A DNA stretch of 62,926 nt, counting the filler, from Sanchytrium tribonematis (taxonomy: Eukaryota): NCBI GenBank assembly GCA_018985235.1. It is 19 parts of 19 records of this genome, joined end to end, with 100 filler letters (N's around TTAATTAATTAA, not from the genome) between each part and the next. Parts side by side here need not be neighbours in the genome. Positions count along the whole stretch, not along the records: positions 1 to 17,341 come from JADGIG010000123.1; positions 17,442 to 19,041 come from JADGIG010001250.1; positions 19,142 to 20,741 come from JADGIG010001251.1; positions 20,842 to 22,441 come from JADGIG010001252.1; positions 22,542 to 24,140 come from JADGIG010001253.1; positions 24,241 to 25,838 come from JADGIG010001254.1; positions 25,939 to 27,530 come from JADGIG010001255.1; positions 27,631 to 29,220 come from JADGIG010001256.1; 11 more parts are not named here. One strand, written 5' to 3'. A model generated the notes under the pieces. That model was not told the origin of the DNA and made no database searches. It saw only the letters and a program-made list of their open reading frames with translations. The position numbers were made by a program, and so were the translations under genes. Position 1 is the first letter of the stretch; every line of letters starts with the position of its first letter. This document shows, one piece after another, positions 706-61,336 of this stretch.

Positions 706-2728
706 TTATATTTTAAAGTAGTTTAGTAGATCATCCAGAAAAACTTGTGCCTCTTCGCAAATGAATGGTTTTGAAATTCTTATCTCAGTCTCCGACAACA
801 GAACTTTCGTTTCTATTTTTTGATTGTAAAGCTGTATGAAAAAAATTTACCTTGGAAAAAACTGTTGCACAATCTAGGTATATTTGAGCTCTCATTTTAT
901 CTTCATCACTTATCCCTAAATTCGAAGTGTTTTGTTTCTTAAATCTTTTCAGTGATTCTTCGGTCTTTTTAATTGTATTTACAACTTCAGTGCTGATTGT
1001 AATAATATAAGCCACAATCTCATTTTTAATCGAGCTCTCGGTAAAAACTTCAATATCCTGATAAATCTTTTCAATATTGAGATGTACGGGTCGTGCCTCA
1101 TTCTTTAATTCCTCGATACCATCAATTATCTCATCCACGTATGTAGATGGAGAAGATATGTCTTTCGATCCCATTCTTACTATGCTAGGTATATTTTTAA
1201 TAGACTGGGCACTTGAAAGCTTCAATTCCATTTTACTTGATAGACTTAGTCTTGATAATTTTTCAAAATCTATTTTCAATTCGTTAAATCTCAAAGAAAT
1301 TAAACTTTTATACTCTTCGTATAGCTCTGTGCCAAGATTTTCTTTACCAGATAAATCCTTCAAATTCGCCAAGATTATAAGTAGATCTGAAAATATTTTA
1401 GCAGAGAAATTTGAAGGTAAATTTCGTAACTTTGAGCCGTTCAAGGTTAAATGGTCAAAAATTAAAAATTTCAAAGAACAAGATACTTCTTGTGTATCAG
1501 GCATAGCTTGAATTGAGGACATCCGATTTAAAATTTCATTCAACTTGCTAAAATACTCAAAATTGAAAGTGCTTTCGCTTTTAGACATTTTGGAAGAATC
1601 AAAATGTAATGACTGCAGGATCTTGGATATCTCCGCTTTTTGTAATTTAGCAAATGGAATCGGATTAAATTTTCTTTTAAATACAATATAACTGGGATGA
1701 TTTGCAAATTCAGATTCTATCTGGAAAGGGTCGATGAAATTTGCTTTGAAAAATGCAAGAAATAACAAAGATTTTTGATAATCTTTTAAATATGATTGAC
1801 TGTTTTCATTGGTGTTTGTAATTTTAAGTTCAGTCAAAAATTTTACAACCAACTGAAAAATATTGTCAAGAATCATAATTGATTTCTCCGAAGCTGAAGA
1901 AAAAGGACACAAAATTTTAGACACCTTGAGAGGGATGCCTGTTAGATAATTTTCAATAATGGAATATTTGATATCAACATTATTTTGATTAACATTTGCA
2001 GTAAGTGTTTTTTGAAGGTCATACATGGGTTCAGAAACTAGCTTTTGCATTAAAGTCGGCAGTGCTTCAGTCCACTTGTCTGACAATTGAAGACATCTAG
2101 AAGTGGACTCTAGACATTCACTAAAAACATCGCTTGTCACCATTTGAGACTTAATAAGTTTCAATTGATCTATTAAAAGTAAACTTTCTTTTTCCAAAAT
2201 TTGTCTAATTGGCTCAAACTTTTTGCTATAGTGTACCTGTCTCTCGGGTAGCAATTCCTTGATAAATGATTGTGTTCTATTTGCGATTAAAATATAATAT
2301 TCTAAACGTTCTAAATTTTCTAAATCAAGAAATGAGCTTACTGTGTTCAATTCTATTTCGGATAAGTAATCGAGGTCTAGCTTAAGGTAATTTTCTGTGA
2401 TCAATAATCGTTTTTGCTCCCTAATTTTTAATAACCTTCCCTCTGGACTATCAGAATCAATATTTTCAATCACCATTGTAGTTTTTGTGGTCATGGCTTG
2501 CACAACATCCAATTCATCCTCAATTTTATCTCCAATAGTTAAGCCATGTTGAATCTTGTGCAATAATTCTTGAAGTTTTAAATAATTTCCATCTAAAACG
2601 GATACTATATCTTTTTGGATTTGTTCAAGATGGTTTTCTAAACGGTTTTCAAAATCATCAATATCTGTTATGGATGCAATAATTTTGTCTAAGTTAATGT
2701 TTTCTTTCTGAAATTCGTGGCGTTCCAT
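706..2728 (-). CDS. COG2: COG complex subunit 2-like; probably 2 exons (2728-851, 831-706)
   Basis: C-terminal PSTYVDEI...VVNTIKKTEESLKRFKK...SDEDKMRAQIYLD motif of Cog2; removing 832-850 opens a further 41 codons. Alternative ATG at 2746. Confidence 0.75.
832..850 (-). other. probable 19-nt spliceosomal intron (GTAAATTTTTTTCATACAG)
   Basis: GT-AG, T12/A14 consensus, open frame after splicing; not strictly required by homology. Confidence 0.7.
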
Positions 2729-2764
2729 GGTTAGTGCCCCAAGCATCAAAAATAACTTCTGGAC

Positions 2765-4568
2765 TTATTTATTGGTAATAAAGGCGTGCTGCAATAATTG
2801 AGTTGCACCTGGTCGACTCTCATAATTGACAATCAAAGATTTATCTAAAAATTGACGTGCCAAATCACTGAGTCCTTCTGGATAGGGAGGAATATTATAG
2901 TTTCCAATTTTAAATATAGCTTCTAGCTGACCAAGTCCAGGCCATGGGTGGTCTCCGGATATCATCTCTATCATAAGGCAAGCCAAGGACCATACATCAC
3001 CTTTTTCCGTATATTTCATTAGTTTTACAACTTCGGGAGCCATCCAATAAACGCTGCCTTTTAAACTCATTCTATTCCCCGCCATAGATAAAGGTTGCTC
3101 TTCGCCTTTTAATTTTGTGCTGATACCAAAATCAGTAATTTTTACACCTCCTTTGTCGTCAACCAAAATATTTCCACTTTTGATATCCCTATGAATAATT
3201 CCTTGGTTGTGAAGATATTCGAGACCCAAAAGACTTTGACCAATAAAGTTTTTCACTAATGGCTCCTCAAAACTTCCATACATTTCAAGCAATCCTTGTA
3301 CCGAGCCACCTAAATTAAAATCGGCTACCTGGAACATATTCTAAAAAGATATTAAGGTAATTTTCCTGAATTTGAGATCCCAAATACCGAACAATGTGGG
3401 GATGATTTAATTGCTTCAGAATTGCAATTTCTTTTTGTAGCGCACGATACATTTTTTTCTTCATTTCAAAATTAGGGCCTTCTTCTGTCGGCATTTCCAC
3501 CATTTTCACAGCTAGAAGCTCACCATTGACCGCATTCATTCCAAGATAAACGGAGCCAAAACTGCCTTTTCCAATTAAGTTGCCTTTGATAAACTTAATT
3601 GGGCCCGCTGATTCTAGGCTTGAGGGCGAGTCTGGTAGGCTCTCTGCTTGATCGTAACTATCTGTATTAATTTTCAGATCCGGTTTTCGATCCGATTTTG
3701 CTCTTCTTGGAGAAGTAGGCTCAGGAGTATTTACAACTGAACTTTGAAGGCTGCTGGGTGAAGAATCCAACATCAAATTTGATACATCAGGAACTTTTGA
3801 AACTCTTCTTAATTCTGCAATTGTATCTCTTGGAAAGTAGTCCTGCAGATGCTGTCCTATGAGAGCTGATGGCGGCCTTGTTCCGAAAAACTTATTCAAT
3901 TTGGTTGACTGCTTAACATCAGCAGATGGCAACTTCCCGTCAAAGTCTTCGCCAAAAAAGTTTTCTAGTTTATGAACTTTTCGTGCTTTGGAGTTTACTG
4001 GAATGTGTCGCTTTCGAAGCACAAGCTTATCTTTGTCGGTTCTTGGATCACGGATAATTGCAAGTAGGTCAGCATCGGAGACTGCTTTACCGGAAGCGTT
4101 AAGTAAGTTGTATTGATTCAAATTAGCTTCTGATGCAGAAAGCCCAAACCGAGACAAAATCTTTTGCATTACATCTTTATAACTCATTTGCTCCGTAACG
4201 CCAACTTGGATTGTCTGGCTATCTTCACCTGTGATTTTCAATATTACTCTATATCTATCTAAAGTTGAGGATGAAGATATATTTTCTTTGCTACTTTGAC
4301 GCAACCGAACCCACGTTCTTTTCAGTTCTTTTACTTTATCCGGATTCAATTGCGGAAGATATCCGTTATATAATCGCCGTATCTCGCTCAAAATTTTAAT
4401 GCGATCTCCGACTTTATGCACTTTCAATTCTTTGAGAAGCGAATGCTCTAGTTTTAATAAACAAAACCCATTTATATGATTCGTGATAAACTGCTCCTGA
4501 TAATGGGACATTTTAATCATATCCAACCAACATAGAACATGATACAAATCCCAATCTTTTACACTCAT
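2765..4568 (-). CDS. STE11: Ste11-like MAPKKK (SAM, Ras-association-like, kinase), 594 aa, 2 exons
   Basis: SAM domain N-terminus, GKGSFG, AVK, HRDIKSGN, DFG, GSVYWMAPE; splicing restores LEYVPGGSV. Confidence 0.92.
3310..3328 (-). other. 19-nt spliceosomal intron (GTAGCCGATTTTAATTTAG)
   Basis: Removal joins the two kinase half-ORFs exactly into EYVPG^GSV. Confidence 0.95.
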
Positions 4569-4721
4569 TTTCAAGGAGAGATTTCACTTGACTCAAAAAT
4601 TAATTTAGCTCTAAATGTACTTGAATAAGCTAATAGAATTGGAAATTTCTTTTTAATCTGAAAAAGTGTTTGAAATTTAGTCTTAAAATATAAGACCAGA
4701 ATTCGAAGGAGATTTGAGGAG

Positions 4722-6224
4722 ATGACAGCAAAGAAGAGACCCGCTGAATGGCAAATAAAAAAGTCAAAGCAAAAAAGAGAGTTAATGATCGAGAAATGTA
4801 AGCAAAGTTGGGAAAAAGCCCGAGTGGGCCATCTTTCTGAAGAAGAAAGAACTCCGTTAATCGAGTTACTTATGTCCCAGATTTCTGGACATATCGAGGA
4901 AGTGGTATTTAAACACGATGCAAGCAGAATCGTACAATGTTGTATCAAGTATGGGAATAAAGAAGATATTTTAAAAATATATACTGAATTAAAACCTCGA
5001 ATGTTAGATTTAATTAAATCAACCTACGGCAAATATATAGTATTGGCATTGCTTAATCATTCTAAAGAAATTAGGATTGAAATTATAGAATTGTTTAAAG
5101 GGCGTGTCGATGAGTTTTTGAAAAAGAAAGACAGTGCTTATATCACTGAGGTTATTTATCATACATACTCATCGCCCAAACAGAAAAAAATTATGATCAA
5201 TGAACTATTTTGCAATCAAGTTAAAAAGTCGCCACAATATTCAGGAATGACATTGACGCAGGTTTTAGAAACCAATGCATCATTAAAAGATGTTATTTAC
5301 TCAAGTATGAAGAAAACTCTTTTCACGTTAATACAAAAAGGCGGATTGGGAGACATGACCATAATTTTAAGAGCTCTTTGGGAATTTTTGAGCTATTTTC
5401 CGGAAGAAGATTTTATTGAACCGCTTCAGGAGCAGATAGTAGAATTTCTTCACCATAAAGATGGTATGAAAATTGCTAATTTTGTATTGCGAAGGTCTGG
5501 TGCTAAGAGTAGAAAGACAGTTTTGAAAAGTTTTAAACCACATTTAAGCAAAATTTGGCAGGACGAATATGGACACATGGTTTTGATTACAGCTTTTGAT
5601 TGTGTTGATGACACAAAAATGGTGCAGAAGGCGCTTATTAGTGATATTTTATTAAAACTTGATGTTTTGGATATTCTCAACAATCAATATGTGAGAAGAG
5701 TTATATTGTATTTGCTAACTCAAAGCTTAGGTATGACACCAAACAATTATCGACAAGATTTTCTCCTTGAAAGGGACTGGTCAAAAGAAACCAGCAAAAA
5801 AGACAATATGGTTAGATTTGAAGAATTGAAAGAAATGTGTTCTAATGATTTTATGGCATTCATAAAATCTAATCTAGGCAAAATGCTTCAAGAAAATTCT
5901 TGCGATCTAATTTTAAATTTGTGTTTGGAAAGTGAAGAGATTTTGACCGAATTAATTAACGATATTGTTGACCTTGTTTCAAATGATATTAAATTGTTGG
6001 AAAACCAGACCATCTCCAAATACTTTTGCAAATTGCTTCGATCTAAATATAATTTACTCATTGTGAAAAAATTAGAACCTGTCCTTGCTTCAAATTTAAA
6101 AAATATTATAGATACTGAAGCTAAATTTGTCATTGGTAATGTTATGAAAGATTCTTCTCTTTTAAAGGCCAGCTTTGAAAATATTAATTGTACTAATGAC
6201 TTTTATCTTAAATTTTTAAAATAA
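4722..6224 (+). CDS. PUF6: Puf6/PUM3 pumilio-repeat ribosome biogenesis protein
   Basis: VFKHDASRIVQCCIKYG, STYGKY, DEYGHMVL...FDCVDDT, TSKKD motifs. Confidence 0.9.
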   Translation: MTAKKRPAEWQIKKSKQKRELMIEKCKQSWEKARVGHLSEEERTPLIELLMSQISGHIEEVVFKHDASRIVQCCIKYGNKEDILKIYTELKPRMLDLIKSTYGKYIVLALLNHSKEIRIEIIELFKGRVDEFLKKKDSAYITEVIYHTYSSPKQKKIMINELFCNQVKKSPQYSGMTLTQVLETNASLKDVIYSSMKKTLFTLIQKGGLGDMTIILRALWEFLSYFPEEDFIEPLQEQIVEFLHHKDGMKIANFVLRRSGAKSRKTVLKSFKPHLSKIWQDEYGHMVLITAFDCVDDTKMVQKALISDILLKLDVLDILNNQYVRRVILYLLTQSLGMTPNNYRQDFLLERDWSKETSKKDNMVRFEELKEMCSNDFMAFIKSNLGKMLQENSCDLILNLCLESEEILTELINDIVDLVSNDIKLLENQTISKYFCKLLRSKYNLLIVKKLEPVLASNLKNIIDTEAKFVIGNVMKDSSLLKASFENINCTNDFYLKFLK

Positions 6225-6292
6225 ATTATTGAATTTTCGTGAAAATTCGCGCCTTTTATACAAGCCTCAAAAAGCCATATTTTTACAATATC

Positions 6293-9233
6293 ATGAACAA
6301 GAAAGTTGTAGCTTTGGAAAACTTTGTGTCGAGCGATAATTTGGCACAGTTTGCTAAAAATTCAATCATTCAAGTAATTCAAGAGGACCCCAGTGGATAT
6401 TACTATTATGGTTTTAATACAGAAAAAAAGGGCGGATGGTTTGTTAAAACTGCAGTAGCAGATTACGTTGAGCCTCCTGTTGTACCTGTAGTAGAGCCTC
6501 CTAAACTTGCACCTGTGTCTTCTGGATTTATGACTCCGGAACAGATGGAAGCTTTGGGAATGCAAAAACCTAAAAAAGTTGCACCCATTGCTCCTGTCAT
6601 AGACAATGCTCAACCAGAATTAAGAAAAGCACCCGCTCCCAGCATACCTGTTGAGAATAATGAGCAAACAATGAGAAGGAAAGCTGCACCACCACCTCCT
6701 CAAAGCACTTTTACGCAAGATGTGATGTCCTCTGGAATTGCTTGGAATGACATGGATAAAATTAACGCATTGATGAACCAAAGCAATTCTGGTTCCCAGT
6801 CTAAGCAAACATCTCTTGGGGAAGGTGAATCGAATTACTCAACAGCTGGAAGAAAAAAAATCGCACCAACGCCTCCAACCACGGATTCACCTTCTTCCAC
6901 ACTTCAGAGGTCTGAAAGCAACCAAAATAACTCTCCACCAGAATCTATGCAGTCATTGGGGAGGAAAAAAGCGCCCCCTCTTCCGACTTCAAGTGACGAA
7001 TTTATTACTAACAAAAAGAGCGCACCAACTATTCCTGAGTCAGAGCCTGTTAACTATTCTTCTATCAATAGAAAAAAGGCACCAGCACCTCCTCCAGAGT
7101 CTGTTCAAATTGACAATGGAAATACCGCTAAAACAAGAAAGGCATCTGCGCCACCTCCACCTCAGCTACAGGCCAACTGGATGAATGTTGACAGTTTAAA
7201 CTCGATGATGAGTCCTATCTCACCTGTTCCGCGTACTACGGACACAGATTTTATTAATTCAAAAAGAACAAGTGCCCTAGATCAATCCGTGTTGGGAAAT
7301 AACTATGCTCAGCCTGTATCAAACGATTATACCTCCAATCCAAGACCCGACCGTAAAACCTCTGTAACTGCAAACGTTGAAAGAGAAAGGTCAGAATCTA
7401 TAAGTATGACAAATTCTAGGCGTAGTACAGTTGGTCAAGGAAACATGTTTTCAGACGCGAATTCGCCCGACATGAATAAATCGACGGGAAATAGAAGCCG
7501 ATCAGACTCCAGCTCAAAGGTCAGTCGAGGAAGAGCTGCTTCTAATGGAAAAGCCATATTGCAGCAAATGGATGTTAATGATTTGGCTTCGGCAAATACA
7601 AGCTTGACTGTGAAAAATGATCAAATGAAATCTATGGACGAACTTCTTGGGCCCTCAGTTAAAAATACTGCGACATTATTTGGTGAATCTAAATCTGCTA
7701 ATCAAAAAAGTCCTCTAGATGATTATGCCGCTCGAAATTTTGGAGCGGATGACAAAGGGTTTACTTGGCAGAAAATCCCTATTAAAAAGCCGATGCATAA
7801 AATTAGCGATACAAATGCGAGAAAATTAGTATTGAATTGCTTTGAATGCATTCTGAGTTATTGCGGTGACGCCTCTGGAAATAGATTTGATGCCGCAAGA
7901 ACAGTAGTTGATATTTCAAAAAGTCCTTTAGCCTCTGATGAAGTTGTTTGCCAGTTATTAAAGCAAACTATTAATAATACCAGTTCTGTGGCAGAATCCT
8001 CAATTAGAGTTTGGGCTTTATTATGTTTGGTGCTAGTCTATGCGGAACCATCATTAGCTTTGAAACAGGCTTTGATTGAACATTTAAAAATTGTTGCGAA
8101 GTATGACAAGCCTTTTGATCAATTGGCTAAAAAATGTATGGAAAATTTACATTTGGCTGGTGTCGAACAAAGAAGAAAAATGTTGCCATCTAACATTGAA
8201 ATATTAGCTTTCGAGCTAACCAAATACTGCATTCCTTTAAAATTGGAATATCCTAATGGTGTATCGAAGTCGTATAATGTCTCGCCGTTTACAAAAGGGT
8301 CCGATGTCTTAACACAGGCTGTCAAATATTTATCGCTACCTGACTTTCTTGATCACGGCATCGCAATTTCAATTGATGAATTGGAGGTGCTGCCAATTCT
8401 TCCGGATGAAAAGGTATTGGACGTTATTGCGATCGTGGAAAAACTCATTGTTGACAAAGATGATAAGAAAGTAGAAGCTTCTCTTGAAACACTAGAAAAG
8501 GCGAAATTCTCTTTAATTCGAAAAGTATGGATGAAAGTAGATCCTCTGTTATTTAACGAAATGGACGAGTGGGAACTTACACAAATTTACAACGAGATTA
8601 GACCCAACTTTATTAGTGGAAACTGGTTGGGTCAACTTCAACTGCAAAAAGATTACTTGGATGTTATGAGTAATTTAGCTGCTACTCGTTCATTAGTTGA
8701 AGGAAAAGGTGATTTAAATTACAATGCTTATTTTCCAAAAGTATATCTGGACTTGCATGATAAGAAAGAAAAAAAGAAAGAAAATTCTGCCGTTCAGGTT
8801 GCATTTGCCAACGCTGTGGAGCAATCTAGGTATGCCAAATCCTTGCAATTAAAAAGAGAGTTTATCAAAGTAGTACACGAATGGGATTTATTTGGAAGCA
8901 GAGTATTTCAAGTTGTATTTGACAGTGATAATAGATTGGCTGGTGACGCTTTTTGCGCTATTAGACCAGATGATGTGTGGTTCTTGGACTCTTCCAGAAA
9001 GCCAATCTCTACTATTAAATATCCCGATATTCAAAAATTAACTTTGGAACAGGGCGGTAGAGAAGTCTTGATAAAGTCTGGAACTGTTGCGCAACAGAGA
9101 GTCATTCGATTCCAGTCTAGACAAGGTTTCGCTATTCAAACTGCGTAGTTATAATTAATTTAGCATAAATATTTACATACAACAGCACAAGCTTTTAGAA
9201 AAAGCTAGACAACCTGCGTCGAAATTACTTTAA
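6293..9233 (+). CDS. SH3 + proline-rich repeats + MyTH4-FERM protein without myosin motor, 973 aa, 2 exons
   Basis: N-terminal SH3 (ALENF...GWF), MyTH4 (DEVVCQLLKQTINN...WALL...RRKMLPS), FERM (WDLFGSRVF); splicing gives AIQTAINIYIQ. Confidence 0.8.
9145..9163 (+). other. 19-nt spliceosomal intron (GTAGTTATAATTAATTTAG)
   Basis: Removes the in-frame TAG and completes the FERM C-terminal helix; frame then open to TAA 9233. Confidence 0.85.
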
Positions 9234-9293
9234 GTAAATTTATTTGAAATATAAAACTTGGCATTCCCCTTGAATTCATTCTTTTACACTTCT

Positions 9294-9557
9294 ATGAAAT
9301 CCAGACTAGATTCATTGCTGAACGAATGTCAATCTTACATGGATGAATTAAGCAACGACATTGACTCGAGCAAATCTAATGATATATCCACCAGCAATTC
9401 GACTGATTCCTTGAGCAATATGTCTAGTAGTTTTTCGACCGAATCACTTACAACTTTCAAATTGGCCAACTTCGAAATGAATGGAGAAGAACTGATAAAC
9501 TTTTTGAAATATCAAAAGCTACTTAGGCTGCCACCAAGAACAAGTTCCAAAAAATAG
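9294..9557 (+). CDS. small Ser-rich protein of unknown function
   Basis: ATG ORF occupying the gap between two genes. Confidence 0.5.
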   Translation: MKSRLDSLLNECQSYMDELSNDIDSSKSNDISTSNSTDSLSNMSSSFSTESLTTFKLANFEMNGEELINFLKYQKLLRLPPRTSSKK

Positions 9558-9608
9558 GGATTTATATACCAAATAAAAATAATTTAATCATTTTTGTAAC
9601 AAAGGACA

Positions 9609-11603
9609 ATGAATTCTAGATTTGACACTTCAATCAAAAATAAGGCAGTTGCAGAATACCAATTAACAGCTGAACATCTCATCAGGGAAGCTTTTGACAA
9701 TCAGACAAAATTGCCATATTTAGACCACAAAATAAAAGACGAGGAAGAATTTGATCACTTGATTTTTATGAAAAGAAAGACATTTGAGGAAGGACTGAGG
9801 CGGACAAAATACAACATCGGGCTTTGGATAAATTATTCCACATTCGAAATGCAATTGAAGAATTGGGATCGCGCAAGAAGTATTTTTGAAAGGATGCTTG
9901 ATATTGACTATCGAAATCTCAAGATATGGTTTAAATATTTAGAAATGGAACTTAGCAACAAACAATTTAATTACGCCAGAAATCTTCTAGAGCGTGCCGT
10001 CAACTTACTCCCGAAAATCGATAACTTTTGGTTAAAATACATTCAGCTCGAAATTAGCCAACGGGAATTTTCCAATGTCATGAAATTGTATGAAAGATGG
10101 CTAGAAAATAAACCAGAGCCTGAAATCTATAGTAAGGCTTGCCAATATTATACCCGCGGAAAACATTACGATTTGGCTCGCAAAGTATTGATCAAACTGG
10201 TTGAAGATTATCCTACGTCTACTTCATGGAAAAGACTATCTGAGTATGAAGAGAGACACGATGGTGAAAGTGCAGCAAGAGGTGTTTATGAAAAATCTTT
10301 GCAGCACTATAAGTCTGATCCTCCACATTCCTTATTATTGAATTTCGCAAAATTTGAACAGCGTTGCAAGCAATTCGAAAGGTGCAGACAAATTTATAAA
10401 TATGCAATGGGAAAGTTTGAAAAAGATCCCGTTGCCAGAACAGCCATAAGTTCGGCATTTCAAACATTTGAAAAGCAAATTGGTGACCCAAGCGGCATCA
10501 ACAATGCAATCGTACTTGAAAAGGCCATGCATTTTGAAGATATTTTAAATTCATCAAATAATGTAGACACTTGGATTGAATATTTGAATATGGAAGAATC
10601 AATATTAAATGACCAGCTTGAATACTTTATCGACTTTGAAACAATCGAGAGTATTAAAGACCTCTCAGTACAAAAACAAGTTCTCAAGATAAGGAATCTA
10701 TACGAACGCTCAATCCGCAATCCTCCAGCTCAAATTAAATCATTTTGGAAAAGGTACTCTTTCTTGTGGATTAAATATTTAATGTTCGAGGAATTGACTT
10801 GTCGCCAAATTGATAACTGTGATAACATTATAGTTAAATGTATTGAATTCATTTCCAACATGCCATTTACGGTTTCCAAATTATGGAATTATTGCGCCCT
10901 TTTCTACATTCGGCAAAAACAGGTAGATAAAGCTCGTAAAATTTTTAAAAAAGGGATTGAAAATTTGCCTACAGGAAGACTGTATATGTATTATATAGAT
11001 TTGGAAACAAATTTACGAAATTTCAAAAATTCTAGATTTTTATTCAACGAATTACTTTGCAAATTTCCAAATAGAATTGAGTCTTATCTAGATTATGCGA
11101 GATTCGAATTGGAAATGGGTGAAACTGATAGAGCCAGAGCGATATTTGAGGTTGCACTTACACAGAATGTTGATCAATCGCAGATTTGGAGAAATTTTAT
11201 TGATTTCGAAGAAGCGTTAGGTGAATACGATAAATGTATATTATTGTTCGAGCGCTTATTGAAAAACAATGTAAATCCTATGGACTACAACTTGTACGGT
11301 CAGTTTTTTGCTAAGATTAATGTTCAAAAGGGTCGTGAAATTTATCAAAAAGCTTATGAACTGATGAAAGAAAAGAATTTAACTGAAAGCAGACTTCAGG
11401 TACTTGAATACTGGAAAAAGTTCGAACTTTCATTTGGTGATGCGTTAAGTCTAAACAATTTACTTGCTAAAATGCCTAAACTCGTCAAAACTAAAACTCT
11501 TTTGGGGGAAAAAGAAGAATATATTTGGCCAGATTCTACTTCCGACAAAGGTACATTAAAACTTTTGGAAATGGCAAAAAAATGGAAGCAATCTCAAGAT
11601 TAA
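9609..11603 (+). CDS. CLF1: Clf1/Syf3/crooked-neck HAT-repeat splicing factor (NTC)
   Basis: IKNK...QLTAEHLIREA N-terminus, RARSIFER HAT repeats, WKRYSFLWIKY, LKLLEMAKKWK C-terminus. Confidence 0.92.
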   Translation: MNSRFDTSIKNKAVAEYQLTAEHLIREAFDNQTKLPYLDHKIKDEEEFDHLIFMKRKTFEEGLRRTKYNIGLWINYSTFEMQLKNWDRARSIFERMLDIDYRNLKIWFKYLEMELSNKQFNYARNLLERAVNLLPKIDNFWLKYIQLEISQREFSNVMKLYERWLENKPEPEIYSKACQYYTRGKHYDLARKVLIKLVEDYPTSTSWKRLSEYEERHDGESAARGVYEKSLQHYKSDPPHSLLLNFAKFEQRCKQFERCRQIYKYAMGKFEKDPVARTAISSAFQTFEKQIGDPSGINNAIVLEKAMHFEDILNSSNNVDTWIEYLNMEESILNDQLEYFIDFETIESIKDLSVQKQVLKIRNLYERSIRNPPAQIKSFWKRYSFLWIKYLMFEELTCRQIDNCDNIIVKCIEFISNMPFTVSKLWNYCALFYIRQKQVDKARKIFKKGIENLPTGRLYMYYIDLETNLRNFKNSRFLFNELLCKFPNRIESYLDYARFELEMGETDRARAIFEVALTQNVDQSQIWRNFIDFEEALGEYDKCILLFERLLKNNVNPMDYNLYGQFFAKINVQKGREIYQKAYELMKEKNLTESRLQVLEYWKKFELSFGDALSLNNLLAKMPKLVKTKTLLGEKEEYIWPDSTSDKGTLKLLEMAKKWKQSQD

Positions 11604-11612
11604 TCGAAGGTC

Positions 11613-12729
11613 CTATAATTTGTATGATAGCTGATAGATTTTCGGTAAACACTGCGAATGTAATTTCGATGGAAATACTGATATTGGTATCCTGCTCTCT
11701 AAGGTCCGTAAGGTTCTTTTATGAGGTTTGAAAATGGCGACCAAATCGTTGGACTTTTCTTCTTCTAGGCCCAAGCTGAGTTCTGTTGGAATTTCGATTT
11801 TAACCTTCAAAAACCATGCTAACTTAATTTGCTTACTTTCAAATCCTGAAGTTGCTTGGGGCGGAATTTGTACCGTAAATATGTTTTTGTACTGATTCAT
11901 CCCTGTAAAAAAAACTGAATTCCAGGTTTTTTTCCCAAGCCTACCATCAACGTGTGTCTCTTCAGTTTCGACCGAAATTTCAATATTACAGCAAAAATCA
12001 TGCAATGCCTTGATACTACCAATAATTGGCCTTCCCAATATGGATGCGGACTTGAAAATAGTTACTTTAGCAATTTTGGCATCATCATTTGAGATGTAGA
12101 AATAAACTTGATTAATTTCAAATACCAGAATCGCTATCAATGACATTTTGCTCCACTTCATCCAAAAATACGTCCAGATTCATTTGCTCCTGAATCTCAT
12201 CAAAATCTTGGGGGTTTCTCAAAGCATCTATCATCTGAATTAGCTTTCTCGGAGAAGTTGGAGACATTAGACTGTCAATACCTTGAACTGAGAAAGCTAA
12301 AGGTTGAAAATAGAAACCCTTTTCGAAATCAAAATCTTCGCAATTGTTTGAGCCCGCAGGAAAATAAATAAATGGTGCCTGAAGCTGTTTCGACTGTTCA
12401 TTTTCATATACAAAAAAAACAACCATTTTGTAGATTATTTTAAAGCTTGATCCTTGGTTGTAAGTGGGAGGCAGTTTGTGAGGCATAATTACAGATACTT
12501 TGCAATTCGTATAGTCTGCAATATATGGTTTTGATGAATAGAACGTGTGCTCAGAATGATAAAAATAATTGCCCACTCCTTTCATTTTAAAATTTTCAAG
12601 CTTGACGTTTTTAGAGAATATCTCACCAACAACTTGGAATAATACCAATTCAACATCTTGCTCATTAATTATTTTGAATTTGAGCTTTTCTCCAGAAAAA
12701 CACACTTGATTTTCAAAGATCACCGACAT
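11613..12729 (-). CDS. RGP1: Rgp1-like (Ric1-Rgp1 GEF subunit, arrestin-like fold), 365 aa, 2 exons
   Basis: FSGE N-terminus, LPPTY...FKIIYK, ETEE, IPPQATSGFES...LAWFLKV, IPISVFP. Confidence 0.7.
12107..12125 (-). other. 19-nt spliceosomal intron (GTATTTGAAATTAATCAAG)
   Basis: Joins two overlapping ORFs in frame (DSDSV-YFYIS). Confidence 0.9.
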
Positions 12730-13269: not shown

Positions 13270-15295
13270 ATGTCCCAGCAAAATTATTATAATCAAGGCT
13301 ATCAACGGCCAAATCAACAATCACCACAGCAGCCTCAACAGAATGCTCAATCTCCTCAAATGCAAAATAACTCACCCCAAATGGCACCTAATATGTACCA
13401 GCAACATATGATGATGAATCAAATGAGAATGAATCCACAGATGAATCAACAAATGATGTACCAATATATGCGAGGTCAAATGCCCATGCAATCTATACCC
13501 CAAAATATAAATCCTCAAATGATTGCAGCACAAATACAGCAAAATACCCCAACAATCCATCAACCAATGCCACCTTCGAACCCGCCCCCTATGAATCCGC
13601 AAATGAATCAGCAGATGCAACAACAAATGCAGCAACAGAGGTTGTCTGCGCAGTATTCAAATTATCAGCAGTACACAGCTAGAATGCCTCATCAAATTCA
13701 ACAATATCAAATGCCCTATAAAAAATCAACCCCATCATTCAATAGAAATCCCACTACAAGTCAAACCGCCACTCCTCCTAAACCGTTGCAATTAATGTCT
13801 GAAACAAAAAAGTTATTTGTTCCTCCTCCTAAACCCAATAATCCTCCTACCCACATACCGTCTGCTAAACAAGTTGGAATTAAATTACTTCAGCCAATTA
13901 AAAATGACGATTCTGCAATGATTCATAAAAAAACAAAAGATCAAGCATCTAGACTTTTAAAAGATGAGCTGCGTATTCTATTCAGAACAATGGACCGGAA
14001 AAGAGCCTTTTTTCAATTTGTTAAAGAATTTGATGAGACCATTGCTAAGAGAACATCTAATTTACAGCGATATTATGATAATCAGAAACTAGCTGTTGCA
14101 AAGCAGTTTGATAAACATTCCACGATTGGTAAAATTATGGCAATTCACCATGCGCGCTCAAATATTTCCACAATCAAAATTATTAAAGATACCAAAAATA
14201 TTGGATATAAAATTGGTGATGTAGACATTGTCGAAAAAGAGTATTTTCAGAAGAAAAAGAATGCAAGAGTGATGCCTTGCCGCTGGGTTGGTTTACATGA
14301 GAGAGCAAACTACGGCCGTCGTGTGAGGCTTCCAGCTGTTTCTGTATTTGATAAACACAAATTTCCAGCTACATCAAGACTTCAATCTCTGGCTCCAATA
14401 CGTCTTAATATTGATATGGATGGTTTGGCCATAGCTGATACGTTTACTTGGGATGTAAGTAACAATTCAAATACCTTTTCATTCAATGTTACACCCGAAA
14501 TTTTTGCCTATATTTTGGCCGAGGATTTTAAATATCCTCTGCATAAAGATTTTATAGATAAAATTATAGAGCAAATCAGCAATGGACTTGAAGACTATAT
14601 GATATGTCCTTATACTGGGGTATCCTCTTATTTTTCTAAAGATGAAGACGATATCAACGAAGACGAGAAAGTAAAATCAAATGATTTGAGAATTGTAATC
14701 AAAATCAACGTAACAATTGGCTTCGTACGACTCGACGACGAATTTGAGTGGGATATATTTAATCTGGACAACTCACCGGAAGAATTTGCAGAGGTCTTGT
14801 GTAGCGAGCTTCATTTGGGAGGCGAATTCATGTATAACTTTTTAATTTAGAACAGCAATAGCGCATTCGATTCGGGAACAATGCTTCATACATCTTAAGG
14901 CTCTTCATAATATTGGGTACACCTTTGACGGCCGGAATATATCGGATTTCGATCTTGAACTTGCTCAATTTTTCTGTCCTATAATCGAAGAAACAACTTT
15001 ATTTAGAGAATACCCTGCTTTCCCTGACTACCATATCAGCACCTATGAACAGATGCTAGCACTAGAAAAGGAGCGTGAAAGAGAAAATCGATACCAAAAG
15101 CGTAAAACTAGAACTAGAAGAAATGTTGTACCTGATAAAGAACCACCAAAAACGTGGAATTCTACCATACATTCCATGTCATATGGAAAATACCCCGCTT
15201 TTGAGTCCACCTTCAGGCAGATAAACGCAGACCAGGTACAATTCGATAACCCTTTGACTCCAGCGGTAGCTATCGTAGATGATTTAAGCGAATAA
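13270..15295 (+). CDS. SNF5: Snf5/INI1-family SWI/SNF subunit with Q/P/M-rich N-terminus, 668 aa, 2 exons
   Basis: PIRLNID...DTFTWD repeat 1, DEFEWD...SPEEFA repeat 2; splicing restores GEFITAIAHSIREQ and joins ORF 15053-15295. Confidence 0.88.
14832..14850 (+). other. 19-nt spliceosomal intron (GTATAACTTTTTAATTTAG)
   Basis: Restores the conserved GEF.TAIAHSIREQ motif. Confidence 0.95.
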
Positions 15296-15317: not shown

Positions 15318-16334
15318 ATGGGGGACCCTTTATTTTTAACAAAAAGCAAGAGAGAAGAAGCGAACCTCAAAGATGGTCCTTTCACCACCTTGGAAATCGA
15401 TCAGATGAAAGAAGGTGTCCAAAATTTTGTAAATATGCATTCTCTTTCTAATGACGATTTAATTGATGTACTTTTTCAGGGATCCAGAAAAGATTTGAGA
15501 AAGCTATTCTACAAGTATCTTTCAGGGGACGTGTTGCCAGGCAGATCACATAGTAGTATATATTATAGAGTTCGACGATTGTTGCACCCAAATAATTTGA
15601 AGGGAAAATTTACTCCAGAAGAGGACGAAATGATTCTCAAACTCCAAAAACAACACGGAAATAGCTGGAAACTAATTGGGGAAGGGATAGGACGCATGGG
15701 TGAGTGCTGTAGGGATAGATATTTCAAGCATTTGAGGCTTCTAGACAAAAATTATGAATCAGGTTTGTGGGACGATGCATTAGAAAGTAAACTAATAGAA
15801 ATAGTATCTCAGTACCTGCCAAAATCTGGAAAACTGAAAATGAGTGATGTTCACCAGCCTCTCCCTTGGAAGAAAATATCCGAAGCAATTGAATTGAGAT
15901 CACCTGATTCTTGCCAAACCAAATGGTACGGCGGTCTTGCTGCTAAAGTGTGGAGATCAATGGCAACAAGCATTCAAGACGAAGAAATTGTGATTAAGAA
16001 AACTGATAAAATTAAAAATGCAAACCGTATAATGTTCAAATGGACATTCCAAGACGACATGAACTTATTAAATGCTATCCAGATACTAAATGTGCGTTTT
16101 CCGGCTGATATAAGCTGGTCCGCAATCGCCAAGACAATAACACATGCGTTAGCTGAAAATCGTGAGGATGAGACATCAGCTCAAGTGCGAGTATTTACCT
16201 CCAGTATGGCTAATTCAAGATTTAACAGATTAAGAACACTAATTTTTAATGGAAAAAACTTTTCGGTTGCCGAAGTTTGTCTTTATTATTTAGAAAATGA
16301 TTGTGGTAGGCTTTCTCAACTACATTCCAAATAG
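15318..16334 (+). CDS. Reb1/TTF1/DMTF1-like Myb-repeat DNA-binding protein (ends at 16356 if 16275-16293 is spliced)
   Basis: KGKFTPEED, GNSWKLIG, CRDRY, GLWDD, PWKKIS..RSPDSCQTKW Myb repeats. Confidence 0.8.
   Translation: MGDPLFLTKSKREEANLKDGPFTTLEIDQMKEGVQNFVNMHSLSNDDLIDVLFQGSRKDLRKLFYKYLSGDVLPGRSHSSIYYRVRRLLHPNNLKGKFTPEEDEMILKLQKQHGNSWKLIGEGIGRMGECCRDRYFKHLRLLDKNYESGLWDDALESKLIEIVSQYLPKSGKLKMSDVHQPLPWKKISEAIELRSPDSCQTKWYGGLAAKVWRSMATSIQDEEIVIKKTDKIKNANRIMFKWTFQDDMNLLNAIQILNVRFPADISWSAIAKTITHALAENREDETSAQVRVFTSSMANSRFNRLRTLIFNGKNFSVAEVCLYYLENDCGRLSQLHSK
16275..16293 (+). other. candidate 19-nt intron (GTTTGTCTTTATTATTTAG)
   Basis: Matches length and T12/A14/T15 consensus; no homology constraint visible. 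Confidence 0.55.
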
Positions 16335-16335
16335 A

Positions 16336-17016: not shown

Positions 17017-17041
17017 TTGCTTCTGATACAAGCGGAAAATA

Positions 17042-32575: not shown

Positions 32576-33224
32576 TCAAGTCAAAAACAAAGTTGCAAAT
32601 ATTATTGGAATCAGCAAAAATGCAAAGATCTTAGCGATGGTCACAATGAATAGACCTTGCTCGACAGTGCCAGAGTCAAGCTCCTGGATTTCTTGATCTA
32701 AATCAACCTTATCAAATTTTATCGCAATCCTTTCTGGATACTGTTGCAAATATAATGAAAATTCGCGATTCCAAGACCAAGATTCTTTGGCTCTAATTTT
32801 TTTCTCTCTGTCTGAAGTCTGAACTGTGCCAGTTCCCATTTCATTTCTATATAAATTCAAATTACGAGCACATATACGAAACGAGTCCTATTAGCATAGA
32901 CTGAATTGACCATAGAGGATTCCAACTTTCTTTATGAAATCCAGTCATGCTCATGCAGATTTTATCGCCTGGTTTAAATCTGCCGCTGGGTGTATAAATT
33001 TTGAAATGAGGAGGACTAAATGGGTAATTTCTCTCAAATAGAATGACTCCAAAGTACTCACCTCCGAAATATGGAGTTTCTTTTGGTCCATTAACAATAA
33101 AATACCATGTCAAAAGGTTATTTTCAGCAGGTTTGACTATAACATTTTCAATAGGCGACTTTTGAATAGCTAAATATTCTTTTTGGAGACGTACCTGTGC
33201 AGGTTTAGGTATTTTGTTACTCAT
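32576..33224 (-). CDS. UBC6: tail-anchored ER ubiquitin-conjugating enzyme Ubc6/UBE2J, 209 aa, 2 exons
   Basis: RLQKEY, TPSGRF, ICMSMTGFH.ESWNP; splicing gives SYMCSNEMGTG and adds the C-terminal TM helix. Confidence 0.92.
32847..32865 (-). other. 19-nt spliceosomal intron (GTAATTTGAATTTATATAG)
   Basis: Joins the E2 core to the tail ORF in frame. Confidence 0.93.
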
Positions 33225-37000: not shown

Positions 37001-40000
37001 ATTGAATCATTAAAAGCATTGCTAGTCACAAAGAATATGTTGAACGTGATCTTTTCAATGATATTTAGTCCAGACAAACGAGCCTCAAATCTTTGCTTCA
37101 AGATACTGCAAGGTTTGCGAACTTATATCATGTCGAACGAGTTACTTAAAAATGATATTTCCGAACACCTCAACTTATACTTGAAGAGCAACAAAAACAT
37201 GGCTGGTGCCGCTATCTCTCCAGCTCCTGGTCAGTTATCAGGACTGGCTCGCCTTGGAGAGCTTTTTCCTGTTAGTCCAAATGTCTCAAACGCCATTGAC
37301 TCTTACTTTGAAGCGCATTTCGCTAGTACAGCAATGGAGTCGGAAGGACTTAAAGCATTGATTCAGTCAAGCATTCGTCAAAAAAATGAATTAACAAACC
37401 CCTCAGCGACAATCGAGAAGCTATTCGAATTTTATTGCATAATTTCATCTAGAACTCAAAAAAAATACTTGGATGCGATCGAATCTATTTGCATGCTTTT
37501 TGGAGAATTCAAAGAAATAGTTGCAGATAAAATTATTAATTACATGGATGTCTCACATGAAAAGTTAGATCTCATGCTGTTTATTGTAAAGACTGGTAAA
37601 TTGAAGGCAATTATGGAGGTCGCCTGTTCGAAAATTTCTCAAATTGGGGCAATGGTGAGTGGTGGGTCAGTAGACTTTATAAGTCTGAAAATGTATAGTT
37701 GTACCAAATTTATCGCCTGCTTAGCCCAATTAGGACCAATTGAAAACACCCAGGTTATAATGTTTCATCTGAAATGCATGGGAGCTCAATTGACAGCTCT
37801 TAAGGGAACACTTCAATCTGCAACTACAAACTTTTTGGTTTTCTATTCTCAAGTTTATCATCTATATTTTTCGTTCCAAGAGGGAGTGATTAAAAAAATA
37901 TTTCCCCGATTCAGCGAGCACACTTCCACATTTTTTCTAGATCCAGCAGCTGATTATACGTACTACGTCGATCAAGTGCAAAGGATGTGCCGCAAAATGT
38001 ATTATCAAGAAAAAGAAATTAACCAAATGGCGTCTACTTTTTTGAAAGCATTGGCAACAGTCAAGGAAACTTTCAGACTTGAAGTATATTTTGATTTGAT
38101 ACTTGAACCAATATTAAGAGACAAAAATTTATTGTCAGAAGCTATATTGGAATGTTGCGCTGCAATTATTTGGAAGATAGACCCAAACAAGGCAGCCGAC
38201 GAATTGTTGGAATGTGCTATTAAATTCACAAAACTTATCGTTCAAAATCAAGACATTAAAAACATTGAACCCCGATATTTAGATCCACTAATAGCATTTG
38301 TATCAAAATCAGTAGCTGCCTCGGGTTTGAAACCATTAGTTTTAAAATCAGAAATTTTACATGTTGGCAGTATCTGCACTAATTTATTTGACATTCCAGT
38401 CGATTTTTTCGACACCATTTTTAAAGAATTGCTTCAATCTTTATATTCTTTCAAAAATATCGATCTTTCAATTGTGACATTCGGACATCTTGTGGAATAT
38501 ATTTCCAAAAGGCTTAAAGAAGAAACTCCAAAGTATGTAACCTATTTGGTTGATGCCTTGAATGACCAGTGCCAACACGAAACTATTGTGAGTATAATGA
38601 AGCTATGCGTCACATTTCCTGATCTGTTTTTGCCTCATTTGAAAATTTTAGAACCTGCATTTAGAAACCATATCGGAAAAATAAGCCAGATGTCTAATAT
38701 GGAGATCAAAACAATAATGTCAGAATTTTTGGTTTTCATGTTGGATAGAATCAATGAGAAAGAGTCTATGGAAGAATTCGCAAATGCAGCTTTAAGATTC
38801 GTATTCATGGTAATGTTGCAGCCTAGTCCAATTCGATTTCAATGGTCCGAATTAATTAAAAATTCAATAATTAAAAATTTAAAACGGGTCGGCTCACCAG
38901 TTATTAAGTATGAATCTTACATACTGTTTATCAAATCCGACTTTGTTAATTCTCAAACTACTGCTACTAGATCTGGCGGTATCATCAGTTTAAAAAATTA
39001 CCTCGAGGTGATAATGGTTGATGTTCAATTACGAAGCAAAAGCTGGACACAACAAACGTACTTTTCACTAATTTAGTCATGCAAATATTTGTATGCTAGT
39101 TGAAACTTGTCTTAGACAAAAGTTTGTAATTAACGATGAAATTCATGCACTGCTTGATAAAGTTTTGGAAAGCTCGAGACATTTTAGTGCAAATGATGAA
39201 GAAGCTGGTGACACTTTGATCAAAAATATTTGTCAGATCGCTTCTGAAATATCTGTAGATGATAGCAAAAAAAATCTGTTTGTGGTCATTTGTGATGTTT
39301 TATTAAAATATCGAAAAGAAGCTTTGGATGGGTTTTCTGAAAATTTGGTTTGTCATTTCGAGAGATCATTACTGTTCCCTTTTGATGACGCAATGTTTTT
39401 CTTGACAAAGCTTATTTTTAAGATGAGCTCCTTGCTTGTCAACTACAGAGAAAGAATTATTTATGGATTGACAACGTTGATACAGGCAAGAAAATCTGAG
39501 AGTGACACAATACGACTTTTTAGGCTTATCAAAGATAAGACATTCAGACTTGCAGATGCAATGCCAAACTTGCAAGAGAAAGGGATTTTAATCAAATCAT
39601 TTATGTCGCAATTAAACGGACAATTTGACGAGGAATATTTTAGATTTATTTTGGAGATGTATACAACTGAAAATTTTAAACAAACTGAACTGACCAGTAT
39701 TTTACAGCCATGTTTTCTCAGAGCTTTTTCGGCTCCTCTTTCCATTCGAATGAAATTTATTGATTTGTATGAAAAGAATATTAGAAGAAACTCTTTCGCT
39801 AGACTTTACTACCTCATAGGTCGACAATCATGGTCAGGTATTACTGAAGATGTATTTAGCGCGTTTTCAATCTACTTGATTTTCATCAATCAGGTTGCGG
39901 TATCATACGAAAGTGTAAAATTAGAAGATCCCAAAAAGATTCTACTGTTAATCCAAGCTGACGGTAAGCGCTTATTTGAAGACGTATTCCCTCAACTTTG

Positions 40001-48139: not shown

Positions 48140-48179
48140 GCTCACCTAGTTTTAAAAATTCAAGGAGATTTTAGACACA

Positions 48180-50032: not shown

Positions 50033-50697
50033 AGCCGTAGATATTAATGATAGACTTTTAGCGTCCTATCAGTTCAAGAGAAAGGATAGGGAGTGGTTGA
50101 AATCTTTTTTTTATTACATTTTGAATTTGATAGTTGTGAATAGCTACTTGTTATACAAACTAGACGCAGAAGAACATGGTCATCAGCCAATGTCTCACTT
50201 AAAGTTTAGACGACAATTATCAAATCAATTAATGCTGTTTGGTCGTGAACAAATGGAAACAATTGTACAACAGTCTTTGAACGGAAAAGTAGATATCACA
50301 AGAAAATTAAATCAACCATTAACTGCAGCATTAGAGAATTGGAAGCAGTTTATGATCATACGTTCAGATGTACCTCAAAAAGACAAAAAAGGGGTAATAG
50401 ACACATACAGAATGCCTGCACATTTAAAGGAAAGGTGATTTTTATTAATTTAGTGGCAATCACTGGATGGTGGAAATCCAAGGGATCCTCAAAGACTCTG
50501 CTAGACCAAGATGCATGTACAAAGACTGCTGGAATAAAGTAAACACAGCTTGTAATAAATGCCACGTTGCTTTGTGCGGAAAGCACTTTAATGTGTGGCA
50601 TTGGGAATACAAATGCTGCCACTACATTCCAAGAAATAAATTATAAATTTTATCTGGTCGTGACGACCTTCAAGGTCATTTAGAGATTTTTAAAGGG
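50033..50697 (+). mobile_element. piggyBac-like DNA transposon, 3' part: transposase C-terminus to TAA 50646 and putative right end ...TAAAGGG
   Basis: AVDINDRLLASY..KRK...W...F...LNL..VNSYLLY; after splicing, Cys-rich RC...C......C..C.V.LC..HF..WH domain; end AGGG followed by TAAA. Confidence 0.88.
50435..50453 (+). other. 19-nt spliceosomal intron in the transposase (GTGATTTTTATTAATTTAG)
   Basis: Removes TGA and brings the piggyBac cysteine-rich domain into frame. Confidence 0.9.
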
Positions 50698-51694: not shown

Positions 51695-52627
51695 ACAAAA
51701 AAGTGGTATTATTATGGCATGGGTTTTTAATGTGTTCTGAAGTATGGGTGTGTCATCCTGACTCAATTGCAAAGTATTTGAATGAATTGGGATATGATGT
51801 ATGGCTTGCAAATACCCGTGGTAACAAATATTCTAAAAAACATGTTTCACTTGATATTGATTCTGAAGCATTTTGGAATTTCTCAATTGATGAAGTAGCT
51901 CAATTTGATGTACCTGCTGTGACGGATTATATTCTACAGTATACCAAACAATCCAAATTGAGTTATATTGGATTTTCACAGGGTACTTCCCAATTTTTTG
52001 CTGCTTTGAGCATTAATCAGGATTTACAAAATAAAATTGACAAATTTATAGCACTGGCTGCTGTAATTCGTCCCCTTCCTTTGCGTAAAACCATTCCTGC
52101 TTCATTAATCCAAAGTTCTCCCAGTTTACTCTATTTATTATTTGGTAGAAAAGCCATATTTGCAAGTGCTGCTTATTGGGGAAACACCCTTAGTCCATCT
52201 TTATTCAGATCTATGCTTGATACGGCCATGAATATCTTATTTGGATGGAATTTGAGTCTGATGGATAAAGAACAAAAAGTAGTTTATTTTCACGTAGTTG
52301 ACACTTTATAGACATTTATATAGCACCAGTTCAGTCAAAGCAGTCGTACACTGGTTCCAAATCATTGAAAAAGAAGAATTGGGCATGTTTATCAACAAAC
52401 CCGATCAATTCAGTAAGCAACCCCGATATCCCATTGAATTAATCAAAACCCCTGTTTATATCGCATTAGGTACCCGTGATACATTATCAGATAAGCCATA
52501 TTTAGAATCTAAATTACAAAATTGTGAAATATTAGAATTACCCAATTATGAACATTTGGATGTAATTTGGAGTGCTACTGTCAAACAAGATGTATTTCCA
52601 TTTTTAAAAAGAATTTTGAATAAATAA
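51695..52627 (+). CDS. Tgl1-like sterol esterase/acid lipase (5' truncated), 2 exons visible
   Basis: LWHGF, GYDVWLANTRGNKYS, GFSQG, HLYSTSSVKAVVHWFQ, YEHLD. Confidence 0.92.
52279..52297 (+). other. 19-nt spliceosomal intron (GTAGTTTATTTTCACGTAG)
   Basis: Gives EQK^LTLYRHLYSTS in frame. Confidence 0.9.
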
Positions 52628-59844: not shown

Positions 59845-60433
59845 ACCAATGACCAATTTCATGACTAATTGTATTTGCATGTTTGATTTCGTATTTAGAG
59901 AATACTTTGTCAGCGGATAAGAATATGGCATCTATATTTGAATCATTTGGGTAATTAGACCATCCATTAATGGAATTATTCGTATCTTTGATTTGACCAC
60001 TAAATATATTTAATGCGGTACTGTCTTTTATACCGTATTGATGGTATAAATCAATTTGTTGTTGCTTATTATTGTCATCAATGGGTGTATCGTCTATTTT
60101 AAATGACGAATTATAGATGAATTGAATGGGGAGATCATTATTTTGATATTTGTCATTTAAATGATCAATTATTCGCATAATGGTATGTGTGGATCCATTC
60201 GTCATGTAAAACCAGTTCACATTGAACTGGATGTTATTATTGAGTGCATTTGCAATAGTTTGAATGTCTTGAGATGGATTTGTGGAATTGAAATATTGAT
60301 TCATGATGTGGTGCTTTTTGGGACCATGTGATGGATTATTGGAATCGTGGTAGTTATTGTTTTGATGAGGAACATCGTAGTCATTCTCGAGAGTGGTAAG
60401 GCAATTGAATGCAAATATAGAAGTGAAGATCAT
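59845..60433 (-). CDS. secreted M43 (pappalysin-like) zinc metalloprotease, 5' part
   Basis: ALNIF, GWSNYP, TISHEIGHW. Confidence 0.8.
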
Positions 60434-60598
60434 TTGGAATTCGGAAATAAAAGGATTATAAATATTAAAATGACCCCTAAACAGGTCTAATTGGGATACA
60501 ATCAGGTAGATTTGTCTGATTAGAGCCTACTTAGCCAAATTGATTGGGTCATTGGTCTGATACGAGGCAATTAATTATTGCTTTCAAATTTACAATAT

Positions 60599-61336
60599 TT
60601 ATTGACTTTTATCACTCTTCTCACTATCCCTTCTAAACCATCGTTGTTGATGTGTATATGTCCCAATATCCCTCGTTGTTGGCTTTGGTTTATTAATTAA
60701 TTTCAAATAATCATATCCTTTCTCAGCATCAAAATTCTTAATGGTCAAAGATAAACCAGGAATCAAATTAATACCGTATAATAAAATGACAGTAATCACG
60801 AATGACCACGCAAATGTGACTAGACATGAAATGAATTGCCAAACAATCAACATTTCCCCTTCAATCGCACCTGAGTAAATGATTTTCGTGCCATCTAAAT
60901 CAGACCAATACCGTTGCGCGAATAAACCAGTTTGTAAATTACCCATTATTCCACCTATACCGTGAATCGCAAATACATCCAACTACATGAATTTAAATAA
61001 CGTGATCATCAATTTTTAATTTATCTTTTAAATGTACTGCGCCATAACAAACTGATGTGCCAATAATACCCATTAATAAGGCGTATGGGGGTCCTACAAA
61101 TCCTGCTGCAGGTGTAATAATGACGAGACCCGTCACCACGCCACTACAAAATGCAATTGCAGAATATTTCTTGGTTTTTAAATATACCCAAAATACCCAT
61201 GTTAATGAAGATGCAGCAGCACAGATATTTGTAGTCACAATAGCAGCTGCTGCTCTACCATTTGCAGCACTAGCAGATCCACCATTAAAGCCATTCCATC
61301 CAAACCATAATAATAAAGTACCCAATAACACATTTG
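60599..61336 (-). CDS. ammonium transporter (Amt/Mep), 3' part, 2 exons visible
   Basis: LWFGWNGFNGGS, GLVIITPAAG, IDDH^LDVFAIHGIGG. Confidence 0.95.
60983..61001 (-). other. 19-nt spliceosomal intron (GTTATTTAAATTCATGTAG)
   Basis: Restores the DD.LDVF..HG motif. Confidence 0.93.

Follow-up and report, generated by a model that had tools for sequence, protein, structure and literature searches.

Three groups are known to have introns of 20 nt or less: heterotrich ciliates, the mikrocytids, and the nucleomorphs of chlorarachniophytes. Those of the heterotrichs measure 15-16 nt, and in Stentor coeruleus (PMC9505925) and Blepharisma undulans (PMC13685798) they carry an A at position -6, counted from the 3' end. 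The mikrocytids Mikrocytos mackini and Paramikrocytos canceri have introns of 16-17 nt (PMC10245619), while those of the Bigelowiella natans nucleomorph measure 18-21 nt (PMC6009652). Among opisthokonts, short introns have been described in Encephalitozoon cuniculi (about 25 nt, PMC6349667) and in myxobolid myxozoans (median 22 nt, PMC13644364). Sanchytrids are algal parasites that form a fast-evolving sister group of Blastocladiomycota (PMC8371127). The DNA analysed here, referred to as the window, is a 62,926-nt stretch of the sanchytrid Sanchytrium tribonematis (assembly GCA_018985235.1) that comprises 19 contigs with 100-nt spacers between them. Eleven of its genes contain a 19-nt segment that, from comparison of DNA with protein sequences, is likely to be spliced out. 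They are likely shorter than any introns so far described from fungi.

The original prediction had listed eleven GT-AG segments, and all of them were found at their positions: 11 of 11 are exactly 19 nt long, begin with GT and end with AG on the coding strand, and lie clear of the spacers (Table 1). Four are in phase 0, two in phase 1 and five in phase 2, and they are placed in the middle of their genes or close to the 3' end. The window has a GC content of about 34%, and the intergenic gaps on its two long contigs range from 1 to 153 nt. On a hand-drawn map of 46 genes covering 50,185 nt, the eleven introns correspond to a density of about 0.2 per kb. Joining the flanks across the 19 nt lengthens the reading frame in every case, by a single codon in the Myb gene. 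Homologs fix the exact register of five segments (STE11, TRA1, UBC6, SNF5 and AMT); two more are supported at family level, three indirectly, and one is unsupported. Ten of the eleven are regarded as credible introns, the Myb segment being the doubtful one.

Table 1. Putative 19-nt introns and spliceosomal protein genes in the window.
Feature	Position	Strand	Evidence
19-nt intron, COG2, phase 0	832..850	-	last exon +41 aa; allele support
19-nt intron, STE11 kinase domain, phase 1	3310..3328	-	best of 75 joins, three homologs
19-nt intron, MyTH4-FERM protein, phase 2	9145..9163	+	immediate stop removed, +22 aa; 16-nt in-frame alternative possible
19-nt intron, RGP1, phase 1, AAG acceptor	12107..12125	-	two Rgp1-matching ORFs joined
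19-nt intron, SNF5, phase 2	14832..14850	+	Pfam SNF5 160-162 in register
Doubtful 19-nt candidate, Reb1-like Myb gene, phase 0	16275..16293	+	motif present; +one codon
19-nt intron, UBC6, phase 2	32847..32865	-	best of 120 joins vs P0521
19-nt intron, TRA1, phase 2	39058..39076	+	best of 11 joins vs P0245, P0246
19-nt intron, piggyBac-like transposase, phase 2	50435..50453	+	immediate stop removed
19-nt intron, acid-lipase family, phase 0	52279..52297	+	both exons match gastric lipase; 16-nt in-frame alternative possible
19-nt intron, ammonium transporter AMT, phase 0	60983..61001	-	Pfam positions 304|305 abut
CLF1/SYF3 (crooked neck), intact 664-aa NTC protein, without intron	9609..11603	+	HAT repeats; 58% identical to A. 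gromovi P0123
PRP31-like open reading frame (ORF), 226 aa	16336..17016	-	matches human Prp31 residues 276-397 only

In STE11, the 19-nt join ranked first among all GT/GC-AG joins and restored EYVPGGSV, a stretch whose pattern [FY]LEY..GGS is found in 116 of 120 STE11 homologs. The runner-up joins were close in score; they measured 4 and 7 nt, which is implausible, and 16 nt, the last with a GC donor. In TRA1, the 19-nt join again came first (299 versus 255 and 322 versus 279), and the spliced product, RSKSWTQQ[T/S]HAN, aligns without gaps to the two clade relatives P0245 and P0246, which are unbroken across the site. At 11 sites of difference in TRA1 exon 2, four residues are altered in the spliced frame and eight in the read-through frame. 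The UBC6 join scored 792 versus 768 against an unbroken relative, compared with 565 for the unspliced frame, and the break is in register with S117|D118 of yeast Ubc6, the exon-2 match being weak (E 0.87). The two AMT exons adjoin exactly on the Pfam profile, and the PDB match to Mep2 stops at the donor; in SNF5, the PDB match stops at GGEF, and the Pfam register is carried across the junction.

The RGP1 and lipase exons match their families in the expected order, which supports both joins at family level and leaves the register unpinned. In the MyTH4-FERM gene, the family is supported by database matches; a Pfam search with the second exon gave no match, and by its motif this exon would fit the last FERM helix. 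Similarly, exon 1 of the piggyBac-like gene matches DDE_Tnp_1_7, while exon 2 has no Pfam match and presumably represents the Cys-rich tail. None of the homologs searched covers the candidate intron of the Myb gene; if spliced, this gene would run into the end of PRP31, with an overlap of about 20 nt. The claim that removal of the segments restores split frames and motifs was thus borne out exactly for the five genes named above, and the Myb candidate, with its one-codon gain and no homolog support, was not upheld.

Further evidence came from the contigs of a DNA run, X1, which may derive from the same data as the source and hence are not independent. The COG2 allele in X1 differs within the intron at positions 4 and 6 only and keeps its length; of its three exon changes, one alters the spliced protein and all three alter the read-through frame. 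The STE11 (except its first flank), MyTH4, RGP1, SNF5, Myb, UBC6 and TRA1 segments are carried gap-free by X1 contigs, which show no spliced joints at the segments covered. Differences cluster at 796-847, 4587-4661, 16650-17123, 39773-39944, 44942-45125 and 47787-48160 and point to two haplotypes. Those in the PRP31 and SRP54 frames are all protein-silent (8 of 8). Judged from the TRA1 exon-2 differences, both sides of the breaks look to be under selection. As had been anticipated for standard gene finders, six of the genes (SNF5, TRA1, UBC6, RGP1, MyTH4 and STE11) are present in the public protein collection as read-through fragments.

Apart from their ends, the segments have a common internal pattern. 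All eleven have a T at position 12 (-8), an A at position 14 (-6) and a pyrimidine at position 15; an A at position 3 is found in 8 of 11, and the interior GC content is 14%. The 3' end can be written as T-N-A-Y-N-(Y/A)-A-G, with every base at a fixed position. In the background, this T/A pair stands before 593 of all 6183 AG sites, and before 308 of the 2153 that are AT-rich (10-14%). Once the 105 position pairs and 16 base pairs that could have been singled out are allowed for, such a motif would arise by chance with a probability of about 1e-6 (6e-6 when Myb is left out). The T and A at positions 12 and 14 are likely a branch-site motif in a U2-pairing context. Among frame-extending joins of 12-60 nt that carry the motif, 11 are 19 nt long and at most two fall at any other length; 11 of the 21 motif joins of other lengths reuse one of the same acceptors. 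Seven 19-nt joins lacking the motif were rejected as chance-like or as fusing neighbouring genes, and none of four motif candidates for 5'-proximal introns was convincing. A 22-nt motif segment (51211-51232) at the frameshift of a decayed reverse transcriptase was also discarded, as its removal does not join the long ORFs.

The fungal origin proposed for this DNA was supported by two genes. Among the 120 CLF1 homologs listed, three close relatives show 57-62% identity, one of them being Amoeboradix gromovi, and all others at most 36%. In a STE11 tree of 20 rows, chosen from 239 homologs to span the fungal groups, the window sequence forms a four-row clade with A. gromovi and two ENA proteins (support 100/100, long stem of 1.49). 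By this single-gene evidence the organism groups with the sanchytrid A. gromovi, its position among fungi being left open by the STE11 tree. A single contig carries both STE11 and CLF1 (2765-11603), and their A. gromovi orthologs also share a contig name, a conserved linkage. TRA1 (34031-42842, + strand) encodes 2930 aa when spliced, the relatives having 2974 and 2865 aa and many other matches about 3500-3900; from these lengths TRA1 appears to be shortened clade-wide.

The STE11 relatives (P0395, P0396 and P0397) all read through the site of the window intron and break elsewhere in the kinase domain, so that the four genes of the clade have four different break codons there. Introns at these breaks were decoded from the read-through protein tails over all codon choices, that is, from protein and not from DNA. 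For A. gromovi (P0396), a 20-nt phase-0 intron was best supported (61 versus 30 and 71 versus 30, 40 solutions), and its removal restores ENYG.FEE.L in the shifted frame. For the metagenome relative P0397, 19 nt was obtained (33 versus 29, 12 solutions), and the residues force AAY-GTAG at the acceptor. The STE11 intron of A. gromovi thus decodes as 20 nt, and that of P0397 is probably 19 nt. Given these breaks, tiny introns look to be clade-wide and the length of 19 nt not universal. The fixed length in the original prediction therefore stands within the window, with 16 nt allowed at two sites, and would not extend to the A. gromovi gene.

Taken together, these features make it very probable that the 19-nt segments are introns of the U2 type and that an ordinary major spliceosome excises them; that they are spliceosomal had already been stated in the original prediction. 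The motif, the register and the presence of CLF1 and PRP31 genes in the window are all consistent with this. The boundaries, motif, register, lineage and two spliceosomal genes are shown by the sequence comparisons, while the mechanism that follows is proposed. U1 and U6 would read a weak GT(A) donor, and U2 would pair loosely with the U-rich stretch at positions 9-15, with A14 bulged. The AG five bases past the branch A would be taken directly, without a pyrimidine tract or scanning, and the lariat loop would be 14 nt. As the genome is very compact, pressure towards deletion may have shrunk the introns to the smallest donor-to-branch distance tolerated; a similar balance of deletion bias against a floor has been proposed for mikrocytids (PMC10245619). 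Intron length would then be set by geometry, because shrinkage stopped at the donor-to-branch floor of the spliceosome, and this floor would differ by one base between species, 19 nt here and presumably 20 nt in A. gromovi. Since 19 is 3n+1, retention would always shift the frame. The separate length-measuring system originally suggested seems not to be needed, as a position-fixed branch site and an ordinary U2 spliceosome would fit instead. Because the PRP31 ORF matches human Prp31 only in part and its ATG lies 25 nt from the divergent ATG of SRP54, about 200 N-terminal residues are apparently absent from it or encoded elsewhere. Nothing on a Prp31 truncation is contained in the accessible part of PMC10158995.

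Several observations weigh against this reading. The sample consists of only 11 cases from 61 kb, and raw GT..AG strings of 19 nt (300, of which 38 have the T/A pair) are no commoner than those of other lengths, so the signal is confined to frame breaks. The join-length comparison is partly circular because the motif was learnt from the same set. In the MyTH4-FERM and lipase genes, a 16-nt in-frame donor compatible with the homologs is allowed. No in-frame 3n intron of 18 or 21 nt was found in TRA1, CLF1, STE11 and UBC6, the sole genes tested, nor among the TRA1 insertions of the window and two relatives. The pairing with U2 would be loose and depend on G-U wobble, and an Rfam search of the window returned no small nuclear RNA (snRNA) gene. 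Among the relatives, P0397 shows a tie (36-36, one reference) between the 19-nt solution and one of 26 nt that uses the same acceptor, and the P0395 tail was undecodable. The decoding control on the STE11 gene of the window missed its own intron, because a stop lies inside this intron.

The alternative explanations jointly carry only a small share of the probability. The one that survives best, although improbable, is that the introns are real and that a much modified spliceosome recognises them by measuring purely from the donor, the T and A at positions 12 and 14 serving another use. The very weak signals beyond GT and AG, the uniform length and the seemingly truncated PRP31-like ORF could be accounted for in this way, and in the short introns of myxozoans the spacing between the donor and certain A residues is constant (PMC13644364). 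However, by its codons the tail of the putative 20-nt A. gromovi intron could well have a T at -8 and an A at -6, which argues for anchoring on the acceptor side, as in the 15- and 16-nt introns of Stentor, and CLF1 is full length.

A very low probability is given to disruptive insertions such as transposon footprints, repair scars or tiny mobile elements, in which case the genes would be pseudogenes or would code for split proteins. Mobile elements are present in the window, and no relative has a segment at the window's position in STE11 (0 of 3), TRA1 (0 of 2) or UBC6 (0 of 1). Nevertheless, GT, AG and branch motif are on the sense strand in all eleven segments, and the downstream exons are still conserved. 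The breaks fall within kinase, E2 and transporter folds. Junction repeats of 0-4 nt, flank identities of 2-10/19 and pairwise identities of 9-15/19 are so low that neither duplication nor a single spreading element is indicated.

Still less credible is removal of the 19 nt by Ire1/HAC1-type cleavage or its bypass by ribosomes. Fungal HAC1 introns are about 19-20 nt long, which matches the size found here; introns of this type have stem-loops at both junctions and are not of the GT-AG kind, whereas the segments of the window have GT-AG ends and a branch motif, occur in unrelated genes in all three phases, and share no common junction fold (0 to -6.8 kcal/mol, with differing structures). An assembly or sequencing artefact is equally hard to accept: the assembly is fragmented, with two haplotypes, and X1 is possibly the same data, but an error process would not yield sense-strand GT-AG segments with a fixed internal motif, the second allele keeps the length, and relatives from other sources show similar breaks.

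As U2-type introns, those of the window resemble the heterotrich ones in their GTA start, U-rich body, branch A at -6, TAG end, near-single length and low density. They differ in being 19 and not 15 nt long, in a loop of 14 versus 10 nt, in a length of 3n+1 where the heterotrich introns are mostly 3n, and in belonging to a fungus and not to an alveolate; moreover, heterotrichs show almost no intron gain, while the sanchytrid positions seem to turn over. By analogy, the sanchytrid introns would work like the heterotrich type with four bases added, and are not related to it by descent. The introns of the B. natans nucleomorph, the nucleus of a green-algal endosymbiont, are similar in length class, GT-AG ends and compact AT-rich genome, but they have no discernible branch A and average 3.1 per gene (PMC6009652). 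Here the branch A is invariant, 46 genes have 11 introns, and the genome is that of the main nucleus in a fungal clade, with no common descent. The mikrocytids share the reduced parasitic state, few introns and a near-single non-3n length; they are rhizarian, their introns are 2-3 nt shorter, and none occurs in metabolic or transporter genes (PMC10245619), whereas lipase and AMT carry introns here. E. cuniculi and the myxobolids likewise combine a compacted parasite genome with GT-AG introns and weak donors, although their introns are longer in typical size and broader in spread, and microsporidian introns are 5'-biased, unlike those described here. A branch fixed a few bases from the AG without a pyrimidine tract is also found in Yarrowia lipolytica, Trichomonas and Giardia, the spacing in Yarrowia being equal to an A at -6 (PMC2483917). 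These organisms have a strong ACTAAC and variable, longer introns, in contrast to the degenerate branch motif and fixed total length found in the window.

The absence of the window introns from the relatives in the three genes compared suggests that intron positions turn over in the clade; the contig of the UBC6 relative, P0521, is short, so that this sequence may come from a transcript. The lack of shared positions agrees with gain as well as with differential loss from an intron-rich ancestor, and the fungal ancestor has been inferred to have had 7.6 introns per kb (PMC8476143). Of the 239 STE11 homologs, 224 are full length and 15 end early, none of the non-sanchytrid ones at a sanchytrid site; few of them are informative. 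Tandem duplication or target-site repeats as the origin of the introns left no trace at the junctions. The gene of the piggyBac-like transposase (50033-50650, + strand) is itself interrupted by a 19-nt intron like those of the host genes; this suggests that the intron was gained, or shrank, once the element had arrived. Because of the four STE11 break codons, the unshared positions and the piggyBac intron, it can be tentatively proposed, as a possibility we hold to be somewhat less probable than its opposite, that the whole of Sanchytriomycota has a species-tuned class of 19-20-nt introns, the shortest in fungi and animals, with ongoing de novo gain; on this reading, a trimmed spliceosome with a half-length Prp31 may permit the 14-nt lariat. 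No clade DNA turned up among the matches listed for JGI metagenomes (at least 3 loci at 32-35% identity, from at least 590 pattern matches), viral contigs (0 of 104) or GTDB contigs (0 of 181).

The window has several other features. Two ORFs, at 50717-51594 and 17442-19041 (both - strand), encode reverse transcriptases that we take, from their motifs, to be of the non-LTR family. The first looks decayed and is frameshifted, the shift not being explained by any 19-nt intron; the second has a Pfam RVT_1 match. The MyTH4-FERM protein (6293-9233, + strand) has a proline-rich N-terminus, is similar to myosin VII tails and has no Pfam match to a myosin motor. MyTH4-FERM proteins are uncommon in fungi. 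Convergent genes end 1-9 nt apart at 16334-16336, 11603-11613 and 44498-44508, so that their transcripts probably overlap.

No report on sanchytrid introns was found in the literature searched, subscription papers and bioRxiv supplements being outside its reach. The word "intron" occurs once in PMC8371127, in a reference title, with no discussion of introns, and its supplements, as far as readable, hold annotation text only; the accessible part of PMC10459994 has nothing on the subject. The proteome of A. gromovi consists of ORFs called on genomic contigs with TransDecoder (PMC8371127). With proteomes of this kind and fragmented public entries, the phylogenomic matrices of the phylum and claims of gene loss may be affected. 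Introns of this size in a fungus mean an independent origin from those of ciliates, mikrocytids and nucleomorphs, and the unshared positions bear on the origin of new introns. With a branch A at -6 as in ciliates, a 14-nt loop and lengths of 19 versus 20 nt in sister taxa, the question of the minimal intron length becomes testable by comparison, in a fungal host that is a much nearer relative of yeast, the organism whose spliceosome is understood best.

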